Source: an uncultured bacterium (GTDB lineage Bacteria; Patescibacteriota; Minisyncoccia; Minisyncoccales; UBA5738). From it: a DNA stretch of 64,000 bases. Positions 5,909-44,136 of this stretch are shown here, piece by piece. The position numbers and the translations under genes were made by a program. Numbering within the stretch: the first letter of the stretch is position 1; each line of letters begins with the position of its first letter. The notes under the pieces were generated by a model. That model had not been told where the DNA came from and ran no database searches. It saw only the letters and a program-made list of their open reading frames with translations. The stretch lies in NCBI GenBank assembly GCA_903847095.1, contig CAINCQ010000024.1, forward strand, positions 126,618 through 190,617, read 5' to 3'.

Positions 5909-6181
5909 TGTCGTGCCTCGCTGTATTCTTATATTATATAATATATTATTGTCAATAGGTAGAGTATCGGATTGTCCCAATAAGGCGAAGCAAAAAACTT
6001 AGTTTTTTTGTGTAACGCGGCTATTGCGGAGACATCCTGACCATGCGTGTTTTCAAGACCGGCTTCTTCCACGCCCGGTTTGCTATATTGCCAGAAAGTT
6101 CCCACCGGAGTTTTTTTTCTTAGCCGGATCTGCTAAAATTTAAATATTAGTAAGCCAAACCAACATTTGGTATTTTAACTT

Positions 6182-9100
6182 ATGGAAAGCAATTTCAACC
6201 AAAAAGAAAAAGAAATTATTGCTTTTTGGAATCAAAACAAGATTTTCGAAAGATCGGTCGCGGCCCGGGCGCGCGCCAAGGATTTTGTTTTTTTTGAAGG
6301 GCCGCCCACTGCCAATGCCAAACCCGGATTCCACCATGTCCTAACGCGGATCTTCAAGGACATTATTTGCCGTTACAAAACAATGGAGGGTTTTCGGGTC
6401 ATCCGCCGCGCCGGATGGGACACTCACGGTTTACCCGTGGAACTTCAGGTTGAAAAAAAACTGGGATTCACGCAGAAAAAAGATATTGAAAAATACGGAA
6501 TAGCCGAATTCAACAAAAAGTGCAAAGAATCGGTTTGGGAATACAAAAAAGATTTTGAGGCCCTCACCGAGCGCGTCGGTTTTTGGGTGGACATGTCCGA
6601 TCCTTACATTACATATGATCGCCGCTACATGGAATCGGTCTGGTTCCTTTTGAAAACGGCTTGGGACAAAAAGCTTCTTTTTCAGGATTACAAGGTGGTG
6701 CCTTATTGTCCGCGTTGCGGAACTCCTTTGTCGAGCCATGAGGTGGCGCAGGGATACAAGTTGGTGAAGGAGCCTTCGATCTTCGTAAAATTCCGGATCA
6801 TTAATTCCGAATATAAAAACTGTTCCTTGTTGATTTGGACCACGACGCCTTGGACCTTGCCGGGTAATGTGGCTGTGGCCGTGAATGAAAAATTCCAGTA
6901 CGTGAAAGTACGGCTGAACAGCCAACCGGACGAGATTTTAATCTTGGCCAAGGAACGGTTGGCGGTACTGGGTTCCGAATATGAAGTCTTGGCCGAATTC
7001 CCGGGAAAGGACTTGGCTGGCTTGCGATACGAACCGATTTTTCCCTTTTCGGAAGAAGCCGGCCAGAATGCTTATAAAGTGATCATGGCGGATTTCGTTT
7101 CTTTGCAGGATGGTTCCGGTTTGGTCCATATCGCGCCGGCCTTCGGCGAAGACGATATGAATGTTATTAAAGATCAAAACAAGGTCTTAAAGCAGAAGGG
7201 CGAACCGGAATTCCCGGTGATTATGACCGTCAACGAAGATGGAAAATTCAGTCTCGATACCAAGCAATGGGCGGGGCTGTTCGTCAAGGCGGCCGACCCG
7301 CTGATCATCGAAGACCTTAAAAAACGCAATCTGCTTTTCAAGGTAGAACTTTACGAGCATGACTATCCTTTCTGCTGGCGTTGTAAGACGCCCTTGATCT
7401 ATTACGCCAAAAAAAGCTGGTTCATCGAAATGTCAAAATTACGCGGCGAACTGATTGCCAATAACAAATTGATTAACTGGGTTCCGGCCTATATCAAAGA
7501 TGGCCGTTTTGGGGAATGGCTTAAGGAGGCCAAGGATTGGGCGATCTCCCGCGAACGATATTGGGGAACGCCCTTGCCGATCTGGCAATGTTTGAGTTGC
7601 GGCCAAAATACGGTGATCGGTTCGGTTGGCGATCTTTTGTCCCAGAAATATTCGACCAATCGTTATTTTCTTTTCCGGCACGGAGATTCCGAGCGACAGC
7701 TTAAAAAAATATCCAGTTGCTGGCCGGAGGTTAAGCCTCTTTCTTTAACGGCCGAGGGGAAGGCCGAGGTTCAAAAAAGAGCCCAAAAACTCTCTAAGGA
7801 AAAGATTGACTTGATTATATCCTCCGATCTTGAACGGACCAAGCAGACGGCCCAAATGATCGCGTCAGAAACGGGTGCTAAGGTTATTTACGATAAACGG
7901 TTAAGGGAATTCAATGTCGGGGTTTTCAACGGAAAGGACCCCAAGACGGTTTGGGATTTTTTGAACAGTCAGGAGAAGCCTTTGGAAACGAACGTGCCTA
8001 AGGGTGAAAGCTTGAATGCTATCAGAAAAAGGGTTTATGATCTCATAAACTCTGTGAACGCAAAATATCATGATCAGAATATCGTCTTTGTTTCCCATGA
8101 AATCCCGCTCACAGTTCTTCAAGGGACATTAAACGGCCTTGACCTTAAAGAAATCGTTGAATCAAGATATTTAAAGCCCAAAGCCAAGATCGCGACCGCC
8201 GAGTGGCGCGAGATTGAATTCCGCAAGCTGCCGTTCAACGAAAACATGGAGATCGATCTGCACCGTCCTTATGTGGACGGAGTGGATTTTGCGTGTCCCA
8301 AGTGTTCGGGTACGGCTAAGAAGATTCCTGACGTGGTGGATGTCTGGTTTGATTCCGGGGCAATGCCTTTTGCCCAGGCTCATTGGCCTTGGCTTACCGG
8401 ATCCTCCGGCGCGGGCGGTCCTTTCGAAGATTCCAAAGCGGGGTCAAAAAGCGGAAAATTAAAACCTCCCGCGCATTTTCCGGCTGATTTCATATCGGAA
8501 GCGATTGACCAGACCCGCGGCTGGTTTTACACTCTGCTGGCGATTTCCACGTTTTTGGGGTTTGGCGCTCCCTACAAGAACGTCATTTCGCTTGGGCACG
8601 TGCTTGACGCCAAAGGCGAGAAGATGTCCAAGTCAAAAGGCAATATCGTCGATCTTTGGCAGTTGACCGAAAAATACAGCGCCGATGCCATCAGATGGTA
8701 TTTTTACACGGTGAACAATCCCGGCGAATACAAACTTTTTGCCGAAAGAGATATTGACCAGGCGATGAAAAAGTTCATTCTGACCGTTTTTAACTGCCGC
8801 GTTTTTTTAGAGACTTACGCCCCGGGGGTCAAGGCGCCTAAAATCGTGATACCCAGACATGTGCTTGACCGTTGGATCGTGTCGCGGCTTGCCCAAGTGG
8901 CCGGGGAGGTTAAACAGCTTTTGGATACTTACGATATCACGACCGCCGCTCGGAAGCTTGATGATTTTGCCGTCAAAGACTTGTCTCTTTGGTATGTTCG
9001 CCGCTCCCGGCGCCGCTTGCAGCAACCAAAGGTTGCCATGGAGCTCCGCCAGGCTTCCCAGGTATTCGCTTATGTTTTGATGGAATTCGCGAAGATCGCG

Positions 9101-9724
9101 GCTCCCTTCGTTCCTTTTTTGAGCGAGGATGTTTACCAGAGTCTGAGCGCCAACTTTTACCAAAAACCAAAATCCGTGCATTTGGAACTTTGGCCGGTTT
9201 TTCCCAAGGGATCGATTGACCGCGCTCTAAGTGCCGATATGGAAAAAGTGCGGCAAATTGTGACCAACGCGTTGGCTGATCGGGCTAAGCACGGCGTAAA
9301 GATCCGTCAACCTTTGGCCAAAATCACAATTGCCTTGAAAAAAAAGCTGAGTGAAGAACTGTGTTTTTTGCTCAAAGAAGAGCTGAACGTGAAAGTCGTG
9401 GCTTTTGGCCCGGTAGCTCTTGGGGAAATGGAATTGGACTACGTTCTGACGCCGGAGTTGAAGGAAGAAGGGATGGTGCGCGAGATTTTGCGCCATTTGC
9501 AGGATGCCCGAAAAATTGCCGGTTATACCCCGAGGGATCTGATCAATATTTATCTCGAAACATCCGTTGAGTTGCAGGCGATTGTCGTAAAAAACCAAAA
9601 ACAGATCACATCGGATACCAAAACCAAGAATATTTTTTTCAAAGCCCCTCCCAAAGGAGCGGTTGTCGACAAGTTCAAGATGGAGCTCGGCGAATTATCG
9701 CTGGCGATCAAAAAAACCAAGTGA
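6182..9724 (+). CDS. ileS: Isoleucine--tRNA ligase carrying an inserted histidine-phosphatase (PGAM/SixA-like) domain
   Basis: PTANAKPGFHHV (HIGH-like), KMSKSKGN and a Zn-ribbon CPKCSG; 1180 aa is about 130-250 aa longer than typical IleRS; residues encoded by about 7646-8230 carry RHG, SDLERTKQTA, PKGES and VSHE motifs. Confidence 0.85.
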   Translation: MESNFNQKEKEIIAFWNQNKIFERSVAARARAKDFVFFEGPPTANAKPGFHHVLTRIFKDIICRYKTMEGFRVIRRAGWDTHGLPVELQVEKKLGFTQKKDIEKYGIAEFNKKCKESVWEYKKDFEALTERVGFWVDMSDPYITYDRRYMESVWFLLKTAWDKKLLFQDYKVVPYCPRCGTPLSSHEVAQGYKLVKEPSIFVKFRIINSEYKNCSLLIWTTTPWTLPGNVAVAVNEKFQYVKVRLNSQPDEILILAKERLAVLGSEYEVLAEFPGKDLAGLRYEPIFPFSEEAGQNAYKVIMADFVSLQDGSGLVHIAPAFGEDDMNVIKDQNKVLKQKGEPEFPVIMTVNEDGKFSLDTKQWAGLFVKAADPLIIEDLKKRNLLFKVELYEHDYPFCWRCKTPLIYYAKKSWFIEMSKLRGELIANNKLINWVPAYIKDGRFGEWLKEAKDWAISRERYWGTPLPIWQCLSCGQNTVIGSVGDLLSQKYSTNRYFLFRHGDSERQLKKISSCWPEVKPLSLTAEGKAEVQKRAQKLSKEKIDLIISSDLERTKQTAQMIASETGAKVIYDKRLREFNVGVFNGKDPKTVWDFLNSQEKPLETNVPKGESLNAIRKRVYDLINSVNAKYHDQNIVFVSHEIPLTVLQGTLNGLDLKEIVESRYLKPKAKIATAEWREIEFRKLPFNENMEIDLHRPYVDGVDFACPKCSGTAKKIPDVVDVWFDSGAMPFAQAHWPWLTGSSGAGGPFEDSKAGSKSGKLKPPAHFPADFISEAIDQTRGWFYTLLAISTFLGFGAPYKNVISLGHVLDAKGEKMSKSKGNIVDLWQLTEKYSADAIRWYFYTVNNPGEYKLFAERDIDQAMKKFILTVFNCRVFLETYAPGVKAPKIVIPRHVLDRWIVSRLAQVAGEVKQLLDTYDITTAARKLDDFAVKDLSLWYVRRSRRRLQQPKVAMELRQASQVFAYVLMEFAKIAAPFVPFLSEDVYQSLSANFYQKPKSVHLELWPVFPKGSIDRALSADMEKVRQIVTNALADRAKHGVKIRQPLAKITIALKKKLSEELCFLLKEELNVKVVAFGPVALGEMELDYVLTPELKEEGMVREILRHLQDARKIAGYTPRDLINIYLETSVELQAIVVKNQKQITSDTKTKNIFFKAPPKGAVVDKFKMELGELSLAIKKTK

Positions 9725-34710: not shown

Positions 34711-36234
34711 TTATTCTATCATTAATTCGACTTTTTGTTGTTGGTGTCCGGTTTTGATCCAGAGGGCGGTGATAGCGCCGACGAGCAAAAAGATCGCGGC
34801 AGTGGTATAAACGGCGCCGTAAGCGGCGACTTGGGCTTTTAATTCCATAAGAGCTATCGCTTGGCCGTAGCCAGCTTTGTCGATAATGTTTACGGTGCTG
34901 TAGCGGGTAATCGCCATTAGTTTATTTTCGGTTCCGTTGCTAAGGATGGTGGTGAACAAGGCTATGCCGAAAGCGCCGGCAATATTGCGTACCAAAGCCA
35001 AAATCGAAGAAGCGATGCCGATTTCTTGTATGGGAACCGCGGAAGCGATGACGTTCGTCCGTTGCGCCATTCCAAAGCCCATGCCAAAAGCCATGACCAT
35101 CAAAGGTATTATGATGTCTAGCGCCGTTGACCTTGGGTCCAAAAAAGAGAACATATAAATTCCGATCGCGGCGACCAGGGTGCTTAAAGCGATAACATAA
35201 CGCGGTTGGATTTTGCCGGTAAGCGAAGCGCCAAGCGGAGCCGCCGCAAGCATCATAACCGCCATAGGGATGAAAAGATAACCGGTTTGCGTCGCGCCGT
35301 ATCCGAGAAAGGTGGAGGCAAAAATAGGAATGAGCAAAATTCCGCCCATCATGGCCATAAAAACGACGAAGTTATTAAGCAGGGTATTCACGAAAACCAT
35401 ATTCTTAAAAAATTTAAAATCAACTATGGGGTCCGGATGTTTTTTTTCGATGAAATAAAAGAAAATCGAAAATATGACCGTAGCGGCGTAGCACAGCAGG
35501 CTGTTGTCGGAGCTCCATCCCCATTCATATCCTTTATCCAGTACCAGTACCAACGATGAGAGCGCGAAGCCCAGCATGACCGCGCCCCAGACGTCAAAGT
35601 TCACTGTTTTCTTTTCCGATGTCGATTCCTTGATGAATTTCCAGGCCATAAAAAGGCCGATTAAGCCGATGGGCAAATTTATCAAAAAAATGGAACGCCA
35701 GCCAAAATTGTCTATCAGCGGCCCGCCGATAAGAGGTCCGAAAACCGCGGCGGCGGCGAACGCCGAGGACCAGATTCCCATTGCTTGGGCGCGTCTTTTC
35801 CCGTGCGGGAAGGTTAGGGCAAGAATGGCCATTGCCGACGGATAATCCGCGGAAACCGCGATTGCCTGGATTATCCTGAATACGATCATTGAGGGAAAAT
35901 TCCATGATAATCCGGCCAAAACCGATCCGACGATAAAGATGATAAAACCAGCCAGGTACACTTTTTTGCGTCCGATCGTATCTCCCAGCTTTCCCCAGAT
36001 AGGCACAAATACCGCGTTGGCCAGAATATACGCGGTAGCGATCCAGCCCGCGGTTGATACCGTAAGGGAAAAATCATTTATCATTTTTGGCAGTGCCAGA
36101 TTGACGATCGTTGAATCAAGACGGCCTAAAAATGTCCCGATAATGACGGTTAAAAGCACCAGCCACGAACCTCCGTCGTTTTTTACGATATTATTGGTCA
36201 TTGGTATATATCCAGACTTTGGCTGACATACCAT
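34711..36234 (-). CDS. emrB: MFS transporter, DHA2 (EmrB/QacA) family, 14-TM drug:H+ antiporter
   Basis: N-terminal DHA2 signature LVLLTVIIGTFLGRLDSTIVNLALP...; about 14 TM helices; the start may be the internal Met at 36201. Confidence 0.8.
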   Translation of the reverse strand: MVCQPKSGYIPMTNNIVKNDGGSWLVLLTVIIGTFLGRLDSTIVNLALPKMINDFSLTVSTAGWIATAYILANAVFVPIWGKLGDTIGRKKVYLAGFIIFIVGSVLAGLSWNFPSMIVFRIIQAIAVSADYPSAMAILALTFPHGKRRAQAMGIWSSAFAAAAVFGPLIGGPLIDNFGWRSIFLINLPIGLIGLFMAWKFIKESTSEKKTVNFDVWGAVMLGFALSSLVLVLDKGYEWGWSSDNSLLCYAATVIFSIFFYFIEKKHPDPIVDFKFFKNMVFVNTLLNNFVVFMAMMGGILLIPIFASTFLGYGATQTGYLFIPMAVMMLAAAPLGASLTGKIQPRYVIALSTLVAAIGIYMFSFLDPRSTALDIIIPLMVMAFGMGFGMAQRTNVIASAVPIQEIGIASSILALVRNIAGAFGIALFTTILSNGTENKLMAITRYSTVNIIDKAGYGQAIALMELKAQVAAYGAVYTTAAIFLLVGAITALWIKTGHQQQKVELMIE

Positions 36235-36862
36235 TTTTCAATTCGGGATAGATGCCGATATTGAAGCGTATCTTAACGTCGAACTGCGCGGTTTTTCTCT
36301 TGTCGGAAATATTGAACACGATATCTTGAGCGCGGGAAGTGGAACTTACTTCGTCAACCACTCCGCTATATCTTTTTGGTCCGAAGGCGTCGACCGTAAA
36401 TTCGACTCTTTGTCCCGCTTGGATGTTTTTCAATCCTTTGTTTTCGTCTATTTGAGCGATGATACGCAACTCGTCCGGGTTAATTATCGTTACTACGCTT
36501 TCGCCGGCATTAATTATTTTACCGGTATCTTCCGTAGTAGCCACGACCAGTCCCGAAGTTTTTGTTTTTATCAATTGATTGCCTACGCGCGCCACTACCT
36601 CGTTCGAAGCGATAATGTCGCCTTCTTGGACGAAAACTTTTTCCAGGGTTCCGGGATTTGACGGTGCCAAGATAATTTCGGGAGCGAAAACTTGCGCTTT
36701 GTCGGTATATATTCTGTCTTTTGTAACCAGCCAATAGCCATATACCGATACAGCCGCTACGATGGCGAAAAAGGCCAGTCCAAAAAATACGAACGGTTTT
36801 CGTTTTGCTTTATCCGGAATTTGGTTGGTCTGATTTGTTGTTGATTCTTGGGTTGTTTCCAT
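36191..36862 (-). CDS. HlyD/EmrA-like membrane fusion (periplasmic adaptor) protein, short form
   Basis: N-terminal TM, then beta-barrel/lipoyl-like segments (VFVQEGDIIASNEVVARV); within the efflux operon. Confidence 0.55.
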   Translation of the reverse strand: METTQESTTNQTNQIPDKAKRKPFVFFGLAFFAIVAAVSVYGYWLVTKDRIYTDKAQVFAPEIILAPSNPGTLEKVFVQEGDIIASNEVVARVGNQLIKTKTSGLVVATTEDTGKIINAGESVVTIINPDELRIIAQIDENKGLKNIQAGQRVEFTVDAFGPKRYSGVVDEVSSTSRAQDIVFNISDKRKTAQFDVKIRFNIGIYPELKNGMSAKVWIYTNDQ

Positions 36863-36863
36863 T

Positions 36864-38384
36864 TTAATAATTGATTATCGTTTCGCCTTCTTTTAAACCA
36901 GCGATGACCTCGATATAACCATTTTGGCCGGTAATTCCGGTGGTTATTTCCCGTTCTTCGCTTCTTTGGTCATCGATTTTTACCATGACGAAGCTTTTAT
37001 CGTTCTTTTTGATTATCGAGCGGGCGGGGATAGCAACTACGTTATCCCGCTGGCTAACGTCAATATTGACGTTAGCGGTCATTCCCAGTTTTATATCGCC
37101 GATATTTTGATCGAGTTGAAGGGTGATTTTATAGCTTTGGGCCGAGCCTATTTTTTGGGATCCGGGGTCAGTGCCGATAACATGCGCCCCAAAGGTTTTT
37201 CCGCCGATAGCGTCCATTGTCACCGTCGCGGTTTGGCCGGTTTTGATCTTGGCGATATCGGATTCCGCCAGATAAACATCGATTTGCGGACGGGAATTCG
37301 AAAAAATACCGATCAAAGGAATGCCGGCCGACGCGGTCTCGCCGGTCTTCGCGTTTTGCATGCTAACGATGCCATCAATAGGCGAAAAGATCGTTGATTC
37401 GGCGATTTGGTTTTGGATAAAACCAAGCTGGTTTTCGGTATTAGAAACGGCGATTTCCTGTATTTTCACGTTGTCGGGATTAGCGCTCGCCTTTGAACTG
37501 TTATAAATCTGCTTGGACGATAAAATGCCGGCCAAAGTCGAATCAATGGCGATTCGGGAGTTTTGGATGGCCGTTTTGTAAGCGCTATAAACGAGATTAT
37601 CGCTGGCGCTGGTTGAATTGTAAGAATTGATAATAACCGCCAGATCGGTAAGCAAAGACTGGATTTTTCCCAACGAAGTTTCGGCATCGCTTTGGGCTCC
37701 GTCGATATTTTCTTGATCGATATTGCCAAGATCTTTTTCCCATTTATTCATCGAGTCAGTAATATCGCGGCGTTTTTTGTTTAAATCAAAGGACGCTTCA
37801 TAGGGAGCGTTGATCATATAAACTGAATTTCCCTGGGAAACGGTCAAGCCGAACATCGGGTGATCGCTTTCAGGCTGGCTAAAAAACTGGTCTATCGAAG
37901 AACCCATTATTCCATCGGTGGCAATATAAGATTCCTTGATTTTATTGGTCGCGTTTTCCAAGCTATTGTCAATCGCGGTTTTGATTTCCGTTGATCCGCC
38001 GGCGGCGGAATCGGCCGCATTTTCGAGCTGGTTTAATTTGATCCGGGCCCCATCCAAGGAATTTTGGGCTAAACGAAGCTGGATTTCAAGATCGGAAGTA
38101 TCGAGGCTGGCCAAGGCTTGGCCAAGACGCACCGTTTGGCCGATTTTAACGTTGGTGTTGGCAATCTTGCCGCCATGTTCGAACGAAAGGGAAAGATCGT
38201 TTTCGGCTTTAACTTGTCCGCTAGCCGTTACGGTTTCGGTAAGGTCCGCTTTTTTTGCGGTTGCGTAATCAAGCGGTTGCGGGCTGGCATTCGCCCGGCC
38301 AAAATAAATGTAAATGGCGGCCGCTCCGCCGACGATCGCGATCGACAGTACCGCGGTAAATAAGTTTTTTTTGGATATTTTCAT
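36864..38384 (-). CDS. HlyD family periplasmic adaptor protein with an extended coiled-coil
   Basis: N-terminal TM, long alpha-helical hairpin region, C-terminal beta domain (GQTATVTMDAIGGKTFGAHV...). Confidence 0.6.
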   Translation of the reverse strand: MKISKKNLFTAVLSIAIVGGAAAIYIYFGRANASPQPLDYATAKKADLTETVTASGQVKAENDLSLSFEHGGKIANTNVKIGQTVRLGQALASLDTSDLEIQLRLAQNSLDGARIKLNQLENAADSAAGGSTEIKTAIDNSLENATNKIKESYIATDGIMGSSIDQFFSQPESDHPMFGLTVSQGNSVYMINAPYEASFDLNKKRRDITDSMNKWEKDLGNIDQENIDGAQSDAETSLGKIQSLLTDLAVIINSYNSTSASDNLVYSAYKTAIQNSRIAIDSTLAGILSSKQIYNSSKASANPDNVKIQEIAVSNTENQLGFIQNQIAESTIFSPIDGIVSMQNAKTGETASAGIPLIGIFSNSRPQIDVYLAESDIAKIKTGQTATVTMDAIGGKTFGAHVIGTDPGSQKIGSAQSYKITLQLDQNIGDIKLGMTANVNIDVSQRDNVVAIPARSIIKKNDKSFVMVKIDDQRSEEREITTGITGQNGYIEVIAGLKEGETIINY

Positions 38385-38788
38385 GCGATTATTTTATTTA
38401 AAATCGTTCTCAAGTCTTCTTTTTCTTTTTTACTTAATTTGGAAAGAATTTTTTCCATACGCTTGGACAGATCCTTGATCCCGTATTCGTACGCGATTTT
38501 TCCTTTATCGGTCAATACCAGGCGGACGATCCGGCGATCGTTCGCGTCGGGAACGCGGCTGATGTTATCCAATTCCACCAGCCGTTCGATAACCGCGGTT
38601 GCCGAAGGGGAAGTGATGCAAAAATTATCGGCGATATCTTTCATCGTAGGCTCCTTGTTCGAATCGATAAAACTCAGCACTTTTATCTGAAAAAACGAAA
38701 AGTTATGCTTATCTCCGAGCGGGGTTTTTTCGCGCATCAGGCGGCCTATTTTGAATATCAGCGAGATGAGTTGTTCTTGCGTGTTCAT
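38381..38788 (-). CDS. MarR family transcriptional regulator
   Basis: winged-helix region FQIKVLSFIDSNKEPTMKDIADNFCITSPSATAVIERLVEL...DRRIVRLVLTDKG; first gene of the efflux operon. Confidence 0.8.
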   Translation of the reverse strand: MNTQEQLISLIFKIGRLMREKTPLGDKHNFSFFQIKVLSFIDSNKEPTMKDIADNFCITSPSATAVIERLVELDNISRVPDANDRRIVRLVLTDKGKIAYEYGIKDLSKRMEKILSKLSKKEKEDLRTILNKIIA

Positions 38789-39066
38789 TTTTAAGCTCCC
38801 GGTTTTTTTGGAAAATCGGGAATTATTAGATTATCTAACTATTAAACATCAGAAGTATATTCTTGTTTGCCTTTTTTGTCAAACAGAGATGCGGGGTCGG
38901 CCGGGCCGAAGTTTTTTTATGGTTTAAGCCAATGGCAATCGTATCCGGGAAGAATAAAATGGTTTGCGGGTATTTGATCCATACCGGCAAAAATATTCCT
39001 CTTTTTTTAAAATAATATTCATTTGAAAATAAGCGGAAAAAAAGATACATTGGATAAAATAGGTTT

Positions 39067-40287
39067 TTGACGGACATGAAAAAATATACTTTATTCACCG
39101 GTGCCGATTTCAGGGTTTTTTTGGCGGAAATGGCGATGCTTGGCGGGTATGACGACTTGGTTTTTTTACATAGCCGGCCTTTTGGCGGTATTTATATTTC
39201 GGAGGCCAATCAAAAGAAAACGGCTTCGGCCGGTTTCGAATTGTATTCCGATACCAAGGCGTTCAAGGATTTGATCAAAAAAGGCAATGACTATTCGGAG
39301 CGGGTGAAAGAATCGATCGCGCGCTATCCGGAAGCGGAATTCAATAATAAGACTTCGACGGAGCTAAAGCGGATCTTGAATGAATATTACGCCGTAGGGA
39401 TTCCGTTCCTTAAAATTTACAGCTTTACCGAGGGAATTTATTCGCCGCTGATCGATAGGACGATAAGGAGCTTTGTTTTTCAAAACATCAAAGAGGAAGA
39501 TCAAGCGGCGCGCGCGTTCGGGCTCTTATTGAATCCCATTGATAAGAAAAAAATCAGGGGCGAACGGGAGCGGATTTTCAAAGTTACGGCGGCGCCCGGT
39601 ATCATAATAGGCTTGTGCCGGTCGGTCCGGGAAATGGGGAAGGCCAAATTCGCGATGCGCAAAACGCTCAATCAAAGCTACGGATTTTTAACTTCTTTGC
39701 TCAAAGTTATTGCCCATAGGAATTATTTTTCCGAAGCGCAACTACAGGCGTGCAAGCATTGCGAAACCAACGCGATTCTGAATAAAAAAAAGATTGATAT
39801 CGGAGAGATCAATCAACGGGTAAAGTGTTTCGTGGCTCTTTGCCAAAACGGAAAACCCGAGTTTTTTACCGGAAAGGCCGCGCAAAAAATCATTAACCAG
39901 GTTAAATTCACTGTTCCAAAAAATTTAACGGAGTTTAAAGGAGATCCCGCGAGCGCGGGGCGGGCAGTCGGTCGGGTAAAGATCATTCCGGTGATCATGG
40001 CCAAGAGCGGCCAGGGGGTGCTTTGGGCGAAGATCAGGGAAATGGAAAAAGGGGATATCTTGGTTGCCAATACCACCGGACCGGAAATGGTGATGGCTTG
40101 CAAGAAGGCCGGGGCGATCGTGGCCAATGAAGGAGGGATCAATTCCCACGCGGCAATCGTTTCCCGCGAGCTGGGAATTCCCGGAATAGTGAATACCAAG
40201 ATCGCCACCCAAGTGTTGAAAGACGGTGATATCGTTGAAGTGGACGCGAACAGCGGAACCGTAAAGATCATTAATAAAGCAGCCTAG
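39067..40287 (+). CDS. PEP-utilizing enzyme mobile (phosphohistidine) domain protein with a novel N-terminal region
   Basis: C-terminus GDILVANTTGPEMVMACKKAGAIVANEGGINSHAAIVSRELGIPGIV matches the PEP-utilizing enzyme phospho-His signature exactly. Confidence 0.7.
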   Translation: MTDMKKYTLFTGADFRVFLAEMAMLGGYDDLVFLHSRPFGGIYISEANQKKTASAGFELYSDTKAFKDLIKKGNDYSERVKESIARYPEAEFNNKTSTELKRILNEYYAVGIPFLKIYSFTEGIYSPLIDRTIRSFVFQNIKEEDQAARAFGLLLNPIDKKKIRGERERIFKVTAAPGIIIGLCRSVREMGKAKFAMRKTLNQSYGFLTSLLKVIAHRNYFSEAQLQACKHCETNAILNKKKIDIGEINQRVKCFVALCQNGKPEFFTGKAAQKIINQVKFTVPKNLTEFKGDPASAGRAVGRVKIIPVIMAKSGQGVLWAKIREMEKGDILVANTTGPEMVMACKKAGAIVANEGGINSHAAIVSRELGIPGIVNTKIATQVLKDGDIVEVDANSGTVKIINKAA

Positions 40288-40292
40288 TGCCC

Positions 40293-40552
40293 CATTAACT
40301 TAATTTCGTCGATTTAGAACATTCAAATCCGGCCAGTTTCAATGAACGACGACGAAATTGTACGCCTCGGCGGTACATTGAGGAGGAGTGAAGCGGAAAA
40401 TGGCCGAATTTCAATGTTCCCGAAGGGCGGAATCTATTTAGCCTGTCTTCGTCGTTGCTCGTCGCTAATGTACCGCACAGGGTACATTACGCTCCTCGCG
40501 CCTAGAATTCAGGCCAAATAGATTCCGCTAAATCGACGAAATTAAATTAATG
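40293..40552. repeat. 260-bp element bounded by about 30-bp imperfect terminal inverted repeats (MITE-like or long structured hairpin)
   Basis: left agtgcccCATTAACTTAATTTCGTCGATTTAG versus right CTAAATCGACGAAATTAAATTAATGtggcact (18-bp perfect core); the interior is also largely self-complementary. Confidence 0.5.
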
Positions 40553-40595
40553 TGGCACTGGGCAAAAAAAAAGAGGAAGGTTAATGCCTATCCTC

Positions 40596-41195
40596 TTATA
40601 CGTCTACGGCTATATCGAATACCAATGGTTTGGCATTCGGCACATTAACAGACAGGGCGGTGGTGAGCGGGATGCCGACCAAGCTCAAGAGAGCCAGATA
40701 GGTTTCCGAGTGTCCCACCAGGACCACGGGTCCGTCAGCCGTTTTGAGTATCTCCAAGATCGCTTGGGCAGTTTTGGAAACATAATCCCGGCATGATTCT
40801 AACCCGGGCCAGCCTTTTTCGTACCAGTACCATTGCCAAGTCATTCCGCTGGCTTCAACGGCTGCCAGAAGTTCTGCGACATTCACGCCGGAAGTATCCA
40901 GGCTCGCTATCGATTCTTTTTTTGTCCACGGGACATTCAGCCCCGCGGAAAGGGTTGTGGCGGTTTCTGCGGTTCGGTTCATCGAACTGGCTACGATAAT
41001 CGTGGGTTTATATCTTCCTACCTTTTCAATTATCGCCATTACCTGGAGCAGGCCATCGCGCGTGAGATGCGGGTCGGAACAGTCCTTGTATATATTGACC
41101 AATCCGACTGATCCATGTCTCACGAAGATAACCTTTACCCTTTTTTTCTTATTTTTCCTCGAATCAGTTTTCAATAGAGCCACCTCCTTAGGCAA
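40596..41195 (-). CDS. Histidine phosphatase superfamily protein (SixA/PGAM-like)
   Basis: VIFVRHG motif, SSMNRTAETA, second catalytic His in VLVGHSE. Confidence 0.7.
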   Translation of the reverse strand: MPKEVALLKTDSRKNKKKRVKVIFVRHGSVGLVNIYKDCSDPHLTRDGLLQVMAIIEKVGRYKPTIIVASSMNRTAETATTLSAGLNVPWTKKESIASLDTSGVNVAELLAAVEASGMTWQWYWYEKGWPGLESCRDYVSKTAQAILEILKTADGPVVLVGHSETYLALLSLVGIPLTTALSVNVPNAKPLVFDIAVDV

Positions 41196-41235
41196 CCTAA
41201 TTAATTATAAAATAAAATTATTAAAAAGTCAAGAT

Positions 41236-42180
41236 ATGGAAAATTATAAATTCATTAGTTTTTTTGAACAAATTTCGGGCAGCGACGCAAAAACAGCCGG
41301 GGGAAAGGCGGCTAATTTGGGCAAGTTGGCCAAAGCGGGCATTCCGGTGCCGGCCGGGTTTGTGATTTTAGCCCCAGCTTTTTTGGAGATTGAAAAAACC
41401 ACGGATATCGGCGAAAAAATAAGAGCGGCTAAGGCAGGGATAGAAATCGGCGATGCCGAGTCGGTAAGAAAGGGGTCGGCAGCGATCAAAAAAATCATTA
41501 TGGCTGCGAAGGCGGATGATTTGGAAGAAGAAGCGCTGGCCGCTTTTGCGGCCTTGGGCGCCAAACGCGTTTCCGTGCGCAGTTCGGCTACCTCGGAAGA
41601 TTCCAAAAGCGCTTCCTGGGCCGGCCAGCTGGAAACGAATTTGAATATCGCTAAATTTGATTTAATCGAAAACATTAAAAAATGCTGGGCATCCTTGTAT
41701 GGTGAAAGAGCGTTGTTGTACGCAGCGGAACAAAAGCTGGAAGAGAAAAAGAATTCCGTGGCTGTAATCGTCCAAACAATGGTTGATTCCGAAGTTTCCG
41801 GCGTTTGTTTTACCGTTCATCCGGTTACGCAAAATAAAAAACAAATGGTTATCGAAGCGGTGTGGGGATTGGGTGAGAGTTTGGTTCAAGGATCGGTAAC
41901 GCCCGACCGTTATGTGGTGGCGAAAATCGGCCGGATAATCGAGGAAGTCGATGCCAACGACCAGGAAAAGATGATTACCCAAACAGTTAAAGGTGCGGAT
42001 TGGGCCAAGGTGCCGGCGGCAAAGCGATCGGCGCAAAAGCTGGCCGGTAAAGAGATCATTGAGTTAGGCGATTTGTGTTTAAAGATCGAACGGCTCTATA
42101 AATCGCCGCAAGACATCGAATGGGCCAAAGAAAAGGGTAAATTCTATATTTTGCAGACGCGCCCGATCACGACTTTATAA
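41236..42180 (+). CDS. Pyruvate phosphate dikinase-like PEP/pyruvate-binding (ATP-grasp, PPDK_N) domain protein
   Basis: N-terminus FFEQISGSDAKTAGGKAANLGKLAKAGIPVPAGFVI is typical of the PEP synthase/PPDK/rifampin phosphotransferase N-domain; ATG at 41236 avoids overlap with the minus-strand phosphatase. Confidence 0.7.
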   Translation: MENYKFISFFEQISGSDAKTAGGKAANLGKLAKAGIPVPAGFVILAPAFLEIEKTTDIGEKIRAAKAGIEIGDAESVRKGSAAIKKIIMAAKADDLEEEALAAFAALGAKRVSVRSSATSEDSKSASWAGQLETNLNIAKFDLIENIKKCWASLYGERALLYAAEQKLEEKKNSVAVIVQTMVDSEVSGVCFTVHPVTQNKKQMVIEAVWGLGESLVQGSVTPDRYVVAKIGRIIEEVDANDQEKMITQTVKGADWAKVPAAKRSAQKLAGKEIIELGDLCLKIERLYKSPQDIEWAKEKGKFYILQTRPITTL

Positions 42181-42239: not shown

Positions 42240-43175
42240 ATGATATTGCCTAAAAATATGGATAACAATTTTAATCAAGACATCGGAGGTTCGAAGGGCA
42301 GGTTGTTTATGGCGTTCCTTGGGCTGGTTATCGTGATTTTATCGTCGATCATGATTTTCCTCTTCACTTCGGAACGGCCTTCGCCCGACCCCTTGGAGAA
42401 ATACGTGGCTGGTTTTGTGCTTGTTGTTTTTGCGATAATAATTTTTGTTCCGGCTCTTCTTTTTAAGCCTCAGCCAGCTGTCAAAAAAATATTTTTTCGT
42501 TTTGAAATTTTAACAGGGTTGGCTTTTTTAGCGGTCGGGTTTTTTTATAAAGATTGGTCTGTGGCGGTCTTTTTGGGTCTTGGCACAATCATTGCCAGTT
42601 TGATAAGCAAGTTTAGGCAGAAAAGAATGGAAAAATCCAGCGAACCGCTTTCCGATCAAACAACAGTTAACAATATTTCTTCTAAGGAGCAAAAACAGGT
42701 CAGGATTTTTTTTATGGTATTGTACAGTCTTGCGGCCATTTGTTCTTTGCCGTTTTTGTATTTTAGGTATCTTTACGTTCAAAATAACGTACCAGAACCA
42801 ATTACGGAACCCAAAACAAGCTTGGATATGATGGAAGCTGTTGCGATCGCAGAAGAGTCATGTATTAAAGGCGAAGAATTTCTTGGCCTTCCAGTCTTTA
42901 ACAAAGAAATCGAGGCTTGGGTGTTCGATATAAATCTTAGCATTGCTAAAGAAGGGTGCGAGCCGGTGTGCGCGGTTTTTGAAGATTCGAAAAGCGCGGA
43001 AATCAAGTGGCGCTGCGCTGGAGTTATTTCAGCGGTTGGTGATGAAACGGGAGTGATAACCAATTTTGAAAAATGCTTGGCGGCCGGTAATCCGGTTATT
43101 GAAACTTATCCCCGGCAATGCCGCGCTAATGGTGAAGCGTTTGTTGAACAAATTGTCGGACAAGAAATTAAGTGA
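42240..43175 (+). CDS. Hypothetical membrane protein with a C-terminal Cys-rich extracytoplasmic domain
   Basis: about 5 N-terminal TM helices; C-terminal 140 aa with 7 Cys. Confidence 0.4.
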   Translation: MILPKNMDNNFNQDIGGSKGRLFMAFLGLVIVILSSIMIFLFTSERPSPDPLEKYVAGFVLVVFAIIIFVPALLFKPQPAVKKIFFRFEILTGLAFLAVGFFYKDWSVAVFLGLGTIIASLISKFRQKRMEKSSEPLSDQTTVNNISSKEQKQVRIFFMVLYSLAAICSLPFLYFRYLYVQNNVPEPITEPKTSLDMMEAVAIAEESCIKGEEFLGLPVFNKEIEAWVFDINLSIAKEGCEPVCAVFEDSKSAEIKWRCAGVISAVGDETGVITNFEKCLAAGNPVIETYPRQCRANGEAFVEQIVGQEIK

Positions 43176-43236
43176 ACATTACGCAATTTCCTGTACGGAT
43201 TAAGTTCCGGCTATCGAAAGAAGGAATTTTAAAATT

Positions 43237-44136
43237 ATGCATTGGATCATTCCGGCGCTTATCGCGCCATTTTTGAACGCGATCGTAAACTTCATCGATA
43301 AATATCTGGTTACCAGGCAAGTTAAAAATTGCCTGGCGATGCAATTGTATACCTCGATTGTGAGTTTTTGTTTTGGGGTGCTCGTTTGGGCAGGGCTTGG
43401 TTTTCCTTCTTTCGGCGGTCTGAGCGTTTTTTATGGGCTGGCCGCGGGCGTGTTGTTTTCGGTCGCGGGAATCGGTTATTATTATGTGCTTTCCCGAAAG
43501 GATGTGAGCGATATGATTTTTCTTTACGCTCTGACACCGGTGTTTGTTTTTCTTTTTGCAAATTTCATTCTTCGGGAGGCGATATCATATAGCCAGTTTC
43601 TCGGTTTTTTACTGATTTTGTCAGCTGCGATATCGGTATCGGCGAGAAAAAAGGCGAATATTCCGCTGCTTTCATTTACCGCTTTTCTAATATTGGGGAT
43701 GGATATATTGTTCGCGCTGGCGATCGTGATGGTGAAGCTGGCATTCAACGCAAGTTCTTTTGCCGTTATGCTGGTTTATGAAGGCTGGGGATTGGGCTTG
43801 GGTGGAATTTTGATTTATTTTTTTTCCGCCAGGATGAGGAGTGCGTTTTGGGAAAATTTTAAAACCACGTCGGTTAAGGCATTTGGCATTATAGGAATAA
43901 GCGAAACTTTAACGGTGTTGTTGAACTGGATCGGTTATTACGCGTTATCGATTGGCCCGGTGGCTCTGGTGAGCGTGGTCGGTGGAGTGCGTCCTTTTTT
44001 TGCCATAATCCTCGGTTATCTGTTGACCCTGTTTATTCCTTCGGCTATCAGCGAGGATATTTCCAAAGAAACGTTATCGCGGAAAATTCTCGCCGCCATA
44101 ATTTTAACTATCGGCTTGTATTTTACTTATACTTGA
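43237..44136 (+). CDS. EamA/DMT superfamily transporter
   Basis: 10 predicted TM helices arranged as two 5-TM repeats. Confidence 0.5.
   Translation: MHWIIPALIAPFLNAIVNFIDKYLVTRQVKNCLAMQLYTSIVSFCFGVLVWAGLGFPSFGGLSVFYGLAAGVLFSVAGIGYYYVLSRKDVSDMIFLYALTPVFVFLFANFILREAISYSQFLGFLLILSAAISVSARKKANIPLLSFTAFLILGMDILFALAIVMVKLAFNASSFAVMLVYEGWGLGLGGILIYFFSARMRSAFWENFKTTSVKAFGIIGISETLTVLLNWIGYYALSIGPVALVSVVGGVRPFFAIILGYLLTLFIPSAISEDISKETLSRKILAAIILTIGLYFTYT

Follow-up and report, generated by a model that had tools for sequence, protein, structure and literature searches.

What does a locus do in which one gene encodes a phosphohistidine carrier, a second one a stand-alone ATP-grasp domain, and a histidine phosphatase is encoded between them on the opposite strand? 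This arrangement is found at positions 39,067 to 42,180 of a 64,000-nt stretch of DNA, hereafter called the window, which belongs to contig CAINCQ010000024.1 (GenBank assembly GCA_903847095.1, positions 126,618 to 190,617 of the forward strand) of an uncultured member of the Patescibacteriota. The three genes are designated A, B and C in the following (Table 1). Identical or near-identical proteins occur in metagenome-assembled genomes (MAGs) named Candidatus Nealsonbacteria and Paceibacterota, that is, in Patescibacteria or Candidate Phyla Radiation (CPR) organisms. An earlier note on this DNA had described A and C as the two halves of an enzyme resembling rifampin phosphotransferase (RPH) or phosphoenolpyruvate (PEP) synthase, and the three open reading frames (ORFs) were confirmed, as were, by strong Pfam matches, their domains PEP-utilizers, His_Phos_1 and PPDK_N. 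Judged by sequence comparison, A and C very probably form a two-component His-swivel dikinase of the RPH superfamily. As a combined statement we favour, with some reserve, a dikinase that acts on an acceptor, most likely a small molecule, and for which B is the cognate phosphomonoesterase.

Domains and relatives of genes A and C

The ORF of gene A opens with a TTG codon at 39067; 24 homologues align from the ATG at 39076 (MKKYTLF...), so the product is the 403-aa protein listed in Table 1. A single Pfam match was obtained, PEP-utilizers at aa 327-397 (E 2.4e-23). Here lies GGINSHAAIVSRELGIP, encoded at 40132-40182, which identifies His358 as the predicted catalytic residue and agrees with the phosphorylation-site signature of PEP-utilizing enzymes, presumably that of PROSITE PS00370. 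The swivel loop, A-N-E-G-G-I-N-S-H358, corresponds to the catalytic-loop pattern T/S-x-x-G-G-x-x-x-H of two-component dikinases. Its first position is Ala in gene A, the three deviating family members have Thr there, and the His, the GG and the following AAI(V/I)SRE are invariant across 25 members of the A-family. Matches to NCBIfam models are confined to the C-terminal 120-170 aa and all fall far below the cut-offs.

An AlphaFold2 (AF2) model of full-length A, built from the alignment of 25 family members, reached a pLDDT of 92.5. A small beta unit is predicted first, then a long helical bundle (aa 43-250), and after it a beta-hairpin and the swivel domain. The best fold match of this model in the PDB is RPH (5FBT/5FBS/5HV1, E 1.6e-11, TMq 0.47), with swivel-only matches such as pyruvate phosphate dikinase (PPDK) and pyruvate kinase reaching a TMq of merely ~0.24. 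At the level of profiles, positions 226-404 of the A-family align with RPH residues 701-866, which comprise the end of the rifampin (RIF)-binding domain together with the swivel domain. The N-terminal ~290 aa had been called novel in the earlier note; this holds insofar as no Pfam match was found in that region, but over its final ~60 residues it can be aligned with the final part of RPH's RIF-binding domain. It is plausible that the first ~225 residues are homologous to the RIF-binding domain too, and likewise plausible that the N-terminal region is an acceptor-binding module, as had been proposed under the name of a substrate-binding module.

In a search of 1.84 billion representative proteins with a profile of the N-domain only, only 565 proteins were collected at E <= 1e-3, of which 20 remain at E <= 1e-30. 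Most of the proteins are carriers of 360-510 aa, and a few are fusions. The A-family is small, highly divergent and, by source names, concentrated in Patescibacteria and DPANN MAGs. With ~285 aa, the predicted acceptor domain of A has about two-thirds of the size of the RIF-binding domain, for which 428 aa and the subdomains apex, arm-1 and arm-2 have been described (PMC4844700). Such a compact 285-aa acceptor domain, found mostly in these lineages, appears to be new.

Gene C is matched by PPDK_N (E 1.9e-86) over 294 of its 314 aa and contains TAGGKAANLGKL...GIPVPAGFVI. It aligns end to end with RPH's ATP-grasp domain (E 4e-51) and also with 9GOJ, a stand-alone chain of 387 aa.

The gene order was compared in 13 A-type lineages, comprising 12 found by exact-protein look-ups and the window itself, as well as in 78 loci of GTDB species (+/-5 kb round the swivel gene), which were found by swivel-domain patterns and are mostly distant relatives. 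A scan of metagenomes with an N-domain-only alignment delivered just two loci. The genes for A and for a PPDK_N protein are adjacent in 9 of the 13 A-type lineages, either with A before C (L001, L085, L086) or with C before A (L090, L091 and the locus of P0036). Both parts are also fused: two relatives (P0145, P0207) combine ATP-grasp, A-type N-domain and swivel domain in the canonical order, the same as in RPH (PDB 5FBS, 5FBT, 5HV1), and a third (P0189) has the carrier first and the ATP-grasp domain after it. These adjacencies and the two canonical fusions bear out the proposal that A and C are two halves of one phosphotransferase. In the closest clade (63-67% identity) A is directly followed by C and then by a gene for RNase T, so the interposed phosphatase of the window is one arrangement among several.

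Two-component small-molecule dikinases are already known, in which one protein is an ATP-grasp protein and another one carries the acceptor-binding and swivel domains. In the case of HpeHI, a crystal structure of HpeI is available, HpeH was modelled as a RIF-binding-like plus a swivel domain, mutation of its catalytic His abolishes activity, and CreHI and PpsAB are cited as homologues (PMC12167813). AcvAB is a further two-component dikinase, from Sphingobium (bioRxiv 10.1101/2022.04.28.489975). All four systems resemble A and C in having a separate PPDK_N subunit and a subunit with an acceptor domain and a C-terminal His-swivel domain, in the adjacent genes with the carrier gene first, and in the conserved His of the GGxxxH loop. 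The split into two genes and the reversed order, which the earlier note had stressed, are therefore correctly described but ordinary, being known from PpsAB, CreHI, HpeHI and AcvAB, and both orders occur in relatives of the window locus. Homologues of 680-704 aa, considered as carriers of the size of PpsA or HpeH, were rejected as such, as they consist of two carrier units fused together.

However, A and C also differ from these systems. HpeH has roughly 480 aa ahead of its swivel domain (catalytic His581) in contrast to the ~285-aa acceptor domain of A, and over the N-terminal ~225 aa of A no sequence similarity to the known carriers is detectable. The PRK08296-type models score 44-80 bits here, with cut-offs of 578-730, and neither a carboxylase nor an oxygenase is encoded near A and C. 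The known systems come from aromatic-degrading Proteobacteria and Actinobacteria, whereas the A-type is found in Patescibacteria and DPANN. An assignment to RPH proper was rejected as well. The RPH equivalogs (NCBIfam NF041857 / NF000283) gave 46.5 bits for A and 238.9 bits for C against a cut-off of 999, and with the second model, 29.4 and 167.5 bits against a cut-off of 1700. Moreover, RPH is a single three-domain polypeptide of 865 aa, whereas the enzyme considered here is split into two genes.

Gene B, its linkage to the carrier gene and a sister genome

Gene B clearly encodes a phosphatase of the His_Phos_1 family (Pfam E 1.7e-18, 67.4 bits against a cut-off of 21.7). The catalytic set is intact and aligns with that of relatives: RHG, NR (in SMNRTAETA), the Glu of LES and the His of GHSE. 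B also has in common with phosphatases adjoining other carriers a motif of the form W-x2-[YF]-W...G-x-E-[ST]. The closest relatives of solved structure are the phosphoserine phosphatase PspA, a phosphoglycerate mutase and glucosyl-3-phosphoglycerate phosphatase. The earlier description as a histidine phosphatase with RHG, SxxRxxxTA and GHSE is thus accurate for a branch-1 member of the family, but its likeness to SixA is not borne out, since no SixA model was among the NCBIfam matches of B and no SixA chain among the PDB matches at E <= 0.01. By sequence, B is matched best by CobC-, PspA- and dPGM-type families, all of them below the family cut-offs.

A tblastn search with the phosphatase of the window gave no match in any locus. 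His_Phos-like ORFs were found by jackhmmer over all ORFs of 92 loci, and 13 of the 15 detected adjoin a swivel-carrier gene at its 3' end. Of the 13 A-type lineages, 7, the window among them, have a His_Phos_1 gene directly 3' of the carrier. Two of them (P0008/L004 and P0021/L089) show the convergent arrangement with a 12-nt gap between the called genes; in four others (P0022/L090, L084, P0023/L095 and the locus of P0036) the phosphatase gene is co-directional, with stop and start overlapping or nearly abutting. A His_Phos_1 gene was present at the 3' side of 6 of 12 A-type carriers, compared to 8 of the 161 carriers of other types (Fisher p = 6e-5, based on the count taken before the last A-type lineage was added). 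The phosphatase is not a chance neighbour of the carrier gene, and as a recurrent partner of A-type carriers it appears to be new. At one of these loci (L004 3530-5170, P0008 lineage) we additionally observed an ORF for a multi-pass membrane protein of 514-546 aa with a QQRRW motif, whose stop codon overlaps the start of the A-type carrier gene. It was considered as a divergent ATP-grasp protein and rejected, as it has no Pfam match, is hydrophobic and, with its QQRRW motif, has the look of a membrane glycosyltransferase.

Further information came from a sister genome (L093), which was found through a phosphatase 81% identical to B and whose MFS-HlyD-HlyD-MarR operon has 95% identity to that of the window. 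This genome is without window positions 39087-40211, i.e. nearly all of gene A; an out-of-frame remnant comprises the start region and the last 26 codons. About 2.4 kb with three unrelated ORFs lie between MarR and the remnant (L093 3660-6240 compared with window 38885-40287). The ORFs comprise 302, 113 and 174 aa, none with a Pfam match on record, and for the 302-aa ORF no NCBIfam match was found either. Since gene A is deleted in L093 and present in the window, it is accessory and varies between strains. Both B and C are intact in L093, with dN/dS values against the window of 0.30 (B) and 0.13 (C) next to 0.14-0.22 for neighbouring genes, and are under purifying selection. Either B and C have other partners, or A was lost only recently.

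The divergence between both strains is mosaic. Over the MarR-HlyD-HlyD-MFS operon (window 34711-38788) they are 95% identical with a synonymous divergence (dS) of 0.11-0.18, whereas the B-C segment (window 40212-42180) is 87-89% identical with a dS of 0.33-0.48. This mosaic between the efflux operon and the B-C segment suggests recombination between strains around the A-B-C locus.

Proposed reaction and alternatives

In the accepted mechanism of two-component dikinases, the His receives the beta,gamma-diphosphoryl group of ATP, the gamma-phosphate leaves and the rest is passed to the acceptor (bioRxiv 10.1101/2022.04.28.489975). By analogy, C would bind ATP in its ATP-grasp cleft and the beta,gamma-diphosphoryl group would be transferred to His358 in the swivel domain of A, whereupon the gamma-phosphate would leave as inorganic phosphate and AMP would be released. 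The swivel domain would then dock back on the 285-aa N-domain of A itself, where a bound acceptor with a hydroxyl group, most probably a small molecule, would receive the phosphoryl group that is left. Later, B would strip this phosphate from the product or from a compound derived from the product. Phosphorylation would thus be a mark of passing nature, as it is in the pathways of Acv/Hpe, Pps and Cre. The domains, the family assignment, the fusions, the gene linkage and the purifying selection are shown by the comparisons above; the chemistry, the small-molecule acceptor, the target of B and the reversible phosphorylation suggested in the earlier note are inferred. Operons of the known systems may hold a phosphatase directed at the product, a role that gene B may share: AcvF and Ppc delta are HAD-family operon phosphatases that act on the dikinase product and work with a carboxylase (bioRxiv 10.1101/2022.04.28.489975). 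Taken by itself, an action of B on the A/C product is a serious possibility, just short of an even chance.

Several observations weigh against this reading. The partner of the dikinase in the window belongs to His_Phos_1, whereas AcvF and Ppc delta are HAD proteins. A kinase and a phosphatase without a further enzyme would amount to a futile cycle, and no intervening enzyme, be it a carboxylase or an oxygenase, is conserved next to the module in the lineages compared. The phosphatase is conserved in the neighbourhood in the 7 A-type lineages counted above but not in the closest clade, where no phosphatase is found at the A-C locus. B and C may moreover have roles that do not need A, as A is deleted in the sister genome. 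Finally, with regard to the acceptor domain, the first ~225 aa of A gave a sequence match to nothing, and a Foldseek search of the PDB with the isolated N-domain model (pLDDT 93.0) was without a significant match (best E 0.46).

The main alternative, distinctly less probable, is that B acts on the carrier. It would hydrolyse the phospho- or pyrophospho-His of A, as a reset, a regulator or an accessory that removes the gamma-phosphate, or it would take part in a His-to-His relay. Enzymes of the His_Phos_1 family work through a phospho-His intermediate, which fits a carrier-directed B. The phosphatase gene is also tied to the carrier gene and not to the ATP-grasp gene: it always sits at the 3' end of the carrier, and three carrier/phosphatase loci (L004, L089, L095) have no PPDK_N gene within 4-6 kb. 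Such an activity would avoid the problem of the futile cycle, and it would have a conceptual model in SixA, a phosphohistidine phosphatase for NPr and HPt domains. This small enzyme of the superfamily removes phosphate from a phosphohistidine carrier, namely from the phospho-His of NPr (PMC7948535). However, neither NCBIfam nor the PDB matched B to SixA, the nearest relatives of B are small-molecule phosphatases and mutases, and no fusion of carrier and phosphatase was seen among 120 listed homologues or in eight giant or fused proteins scanned with Pfam.

It is rather unlikely that A and C form a kinase inactivating xenobiotics or antibiotics in the manner of RPH. According to this explanation, the acceptor would be a toxic small molecule of the host or the community, and the MarR-controlled efflux genes and the EamA transporter would be parts of one detoxification island with it. 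Structurally, A is matched best by RPH, and the RPH family consists of widespread small-molecule dikinases, some of which act on antibiotics (PMC4844700). Gene A is divergent from the MarR-HlyD-HlyD-MFS operon (Pfam), an EamA transporter is encoded downstream of C, and one relative (L091) has APH and EamA genes nearby as well. The strain-variable presence of A is typical of accessory resistance genes. Against this stand the NCBIfam scores of A and C far below the RPH cut-off, a resistance kinase having no obvious need of a cognate phosphatase, and the neighbours: the efflux and transporter genes differ in every other lineage, for which reason a MarR-efflux/EamA link was rejected as a conserved feature.

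Even less probable, in our estimation, is an acceptor that is a protein or a polymer, with A and C acting as a non-canonical protein kinase or a glycan dikinase and B as the opposing phosphatase. In the literature, PPDK-derived enzymes are described that can be regulatory kinases (VadK), and glucan water dikinases that phosphorylate polymers. In the model of A, the N-domain is predicted to be mostly a long helical bundle without a recognisable ligand-pocket match, and the L004 carrier gene overlaps that of the QQRRW membrane protein upstream. However, no conserved candidate target gene adjoins the module, the characterised RPH-type enzymes of this layout encountered here all act on small molecules, and B resembles small-molecule phosphatases. 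A last explanation takes A and C for a central-metabolic PEP synthase or PPDK whose annotation is fragmented, with an unrelated phosphatase next to it, and can practically be dismissed. In its favour are the labels in databases ('PEP-utilizing enzyme', 'phosphoenolpyruvate synthase') and the names of the best NCBIfam matches, and these enzymes share the ATP-grasp and swivel phosphohistidine domains. However, their TIM-barrel PEP/pyruvate-binding domain is missing from A, C and the neighbours (Pfam), which already refutes the explanation. A and C are moreover split and reach 93 and 285 bits against a PEP-synthase equivalog cut-off of 598, the regulatory Thr two residues before the catalytic His is Asn356 in A, and the linkage to a phosphatase recurs. 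For genes of the A/C type, 'PEP synthase' and 'PEP-utilizing enzyme' are misleading labels.

Carrier arrays, the intergenic hairpin and neighbouring features

Swivel domains are often found in number. At least two are present in 41 of the 78 GTDB loci, at least three in 25 and at least four in 17, with a maximum of seven, and the 25 loci with at least three never hold more than one PPDK_N gene. Three relatives (P0150, P0191, P0206) have one ATP-grasp domain fused with 2-3 carriers. Tandem arrays of 4-7 genes were observed in MAGs of Patescibacteria and DPANN (L033 1-8400; L066 400-6900; L092 1-7700; L012; L045; L016). Each gene of these arrays combines an unrelated N-domain with a swivel phosphohistidine domain; no more than one PPDK_N gene is located nearby, and sometimes there are His_Phos-like or acylphosphatase genes.

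Because the arrays hold at most one PPDK_N gene and single-polypeptide fusions with 2-3 carriers exist, these data suggest that one ATP-grasp protein charges many carriers. Carrier arrays beside one ATP-grasp gene, some of them fused, appear to be new; a search of the accessible literature located no account of carrier arrays or of the phosphatase pairing, which is not proof of their being unpublished. As a tentative extension, which we regard as possible though rather doubtful, a phosphoryl-distribution system specific to Patescibacteria and DPANN could be envisaged. One ATP-grasp 'charger' would load many His-swivel carriers, each with its own compact acceptor domain, and the window would represent one unit of this system. 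A dedicated His_Phos_1 enzyme for certain carrier types, the A-type included, would remove the phosphate again or take it directly from the phospho-His of the carrier. If true, minimal genomes would possess a phosphorylation network that is modular, varies between strains and serves molecules scavenged or derived from the host, and that is distinct from the known roles of the superfamily in aromatic catabolism and antibiotic resistance. The genomes of Patescibacteria and DPANN are very small, yet many keep several paralogous carriers beside one ATP-grasp gene. With a confident model of A, an obvious catalytic His and a natural deletion in a sister strain, A-B-C offers a tractable three-gene entry to CPR/DPANN biochemistry, and identifying the acceptor of A and C would show what these episymbionts phosphorylate.

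Table 1. Features of the A-B-C locus, in window positions
Feature	Position	Strand	Basis or remark
Gene A, predicted dikinase carrier/acceptor subunit, 403 aa	39076..40287	+	Pfam PEP-utilizers, AF2 model, RPH fold match
Gene A N-domain, compact, predicted acceptor-binding	aa 1-285, 39076-39930	+	
Gene A phosphohistidine swivel domain	aa 286-403	+	predicted catalytic His358 at 40147-40149
Near-palindromic element, 282 nt, between convergent genes A and B	40282..40563	.	left arm and stop codon of A overlap
Gene B, branch-1 histidine phosphatase, 195-199 aa	40596..41195	-	RHG = residues 26-28, about 41112-41120
Gene C, stand-alone ATP-grasp (PPDK_N), predicted dikinase nucleotide-binding subunit, 314 aa	41236..42180	+	Pfam
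Weak sigma-70-like promoter match upstream of gene A	39023..39051	+	9/12, consensus match only
Strong sigma-70-like promoter match TTGACT-17-TATAAT just upstream of gene B	41204..41232	-	11/12, consensus match only

The element between A and B has terminal arms of 36 nt that are 92% complementary, and nested internal repeats. Its hairpin fold was calculated at -131 kcal/mol, compared to -75 +/- 5 for shuffled sequences (z = -11), and no Rfam family was found inside the element at E <= 1. The earlier note had named it an element of the type of a miniature inverted-repeat transposable element (MITE). The inverted terminal arms are indeed there, but a second copy was found neither in the 64-kb window nor in about 815 kb of related loci, except for the orthologous site of L093/L094, nor in viral contigs. 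The flanks of the hairpin showed no clear target-site duplication, and the MITE label is unproven. At the orthologous site of L093 (3395-3675) the hairpin agrees in 275 of 281 positions (97.9%), whereas the identity of the surroundings is 90% for the tail of A, 78% for the spacer and 87% for B and C. The element is far more conserved than the synonymous sites in its flanks, which points to functional constraint, e.g. as a bidirectional terminator or RNA stabiliser between the convergent genes, or to homogenisation by other copies.

With respect to promoters, the 290-nt divergent intergenic region is common to gene A and the MarR-efflux operon. The total number of sigma-70-like sites in the region upstream of gene A is not above the expectation from shuffled sequences. 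Downstream of gene C (window 42240-44136), a 311-aa membrane protein without a family match and the EamA transporter are encoded. Both are missing from the sister contigs L093/L094, which encode a 134-aa putative secreted protein at this site. A PADLOC search for anti-phage defence gave no match for A, B, C or two neighbours.

A further His_Phos_1 domain was observed elsewhere in the window. Positions 6179-9721 (+) encode a 1181-aa protein resembling isoleucyl-tRNA synthetase (IleRS; tRNA-synt_1, Anticodon_1, DUF5915), with a complete His_Phos_1 domain (aa 497-681, E 4e-32, intact RHG/R/E/H) inserted inside the catalytic domain. A literature search found no paper on this insert. IleRS matches from outside the CPR cover only ~23-30% of the query and are mostly without it. 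In Patescibacteria, the insert is common to dozens of IleRS clusters of 35-59% identity.

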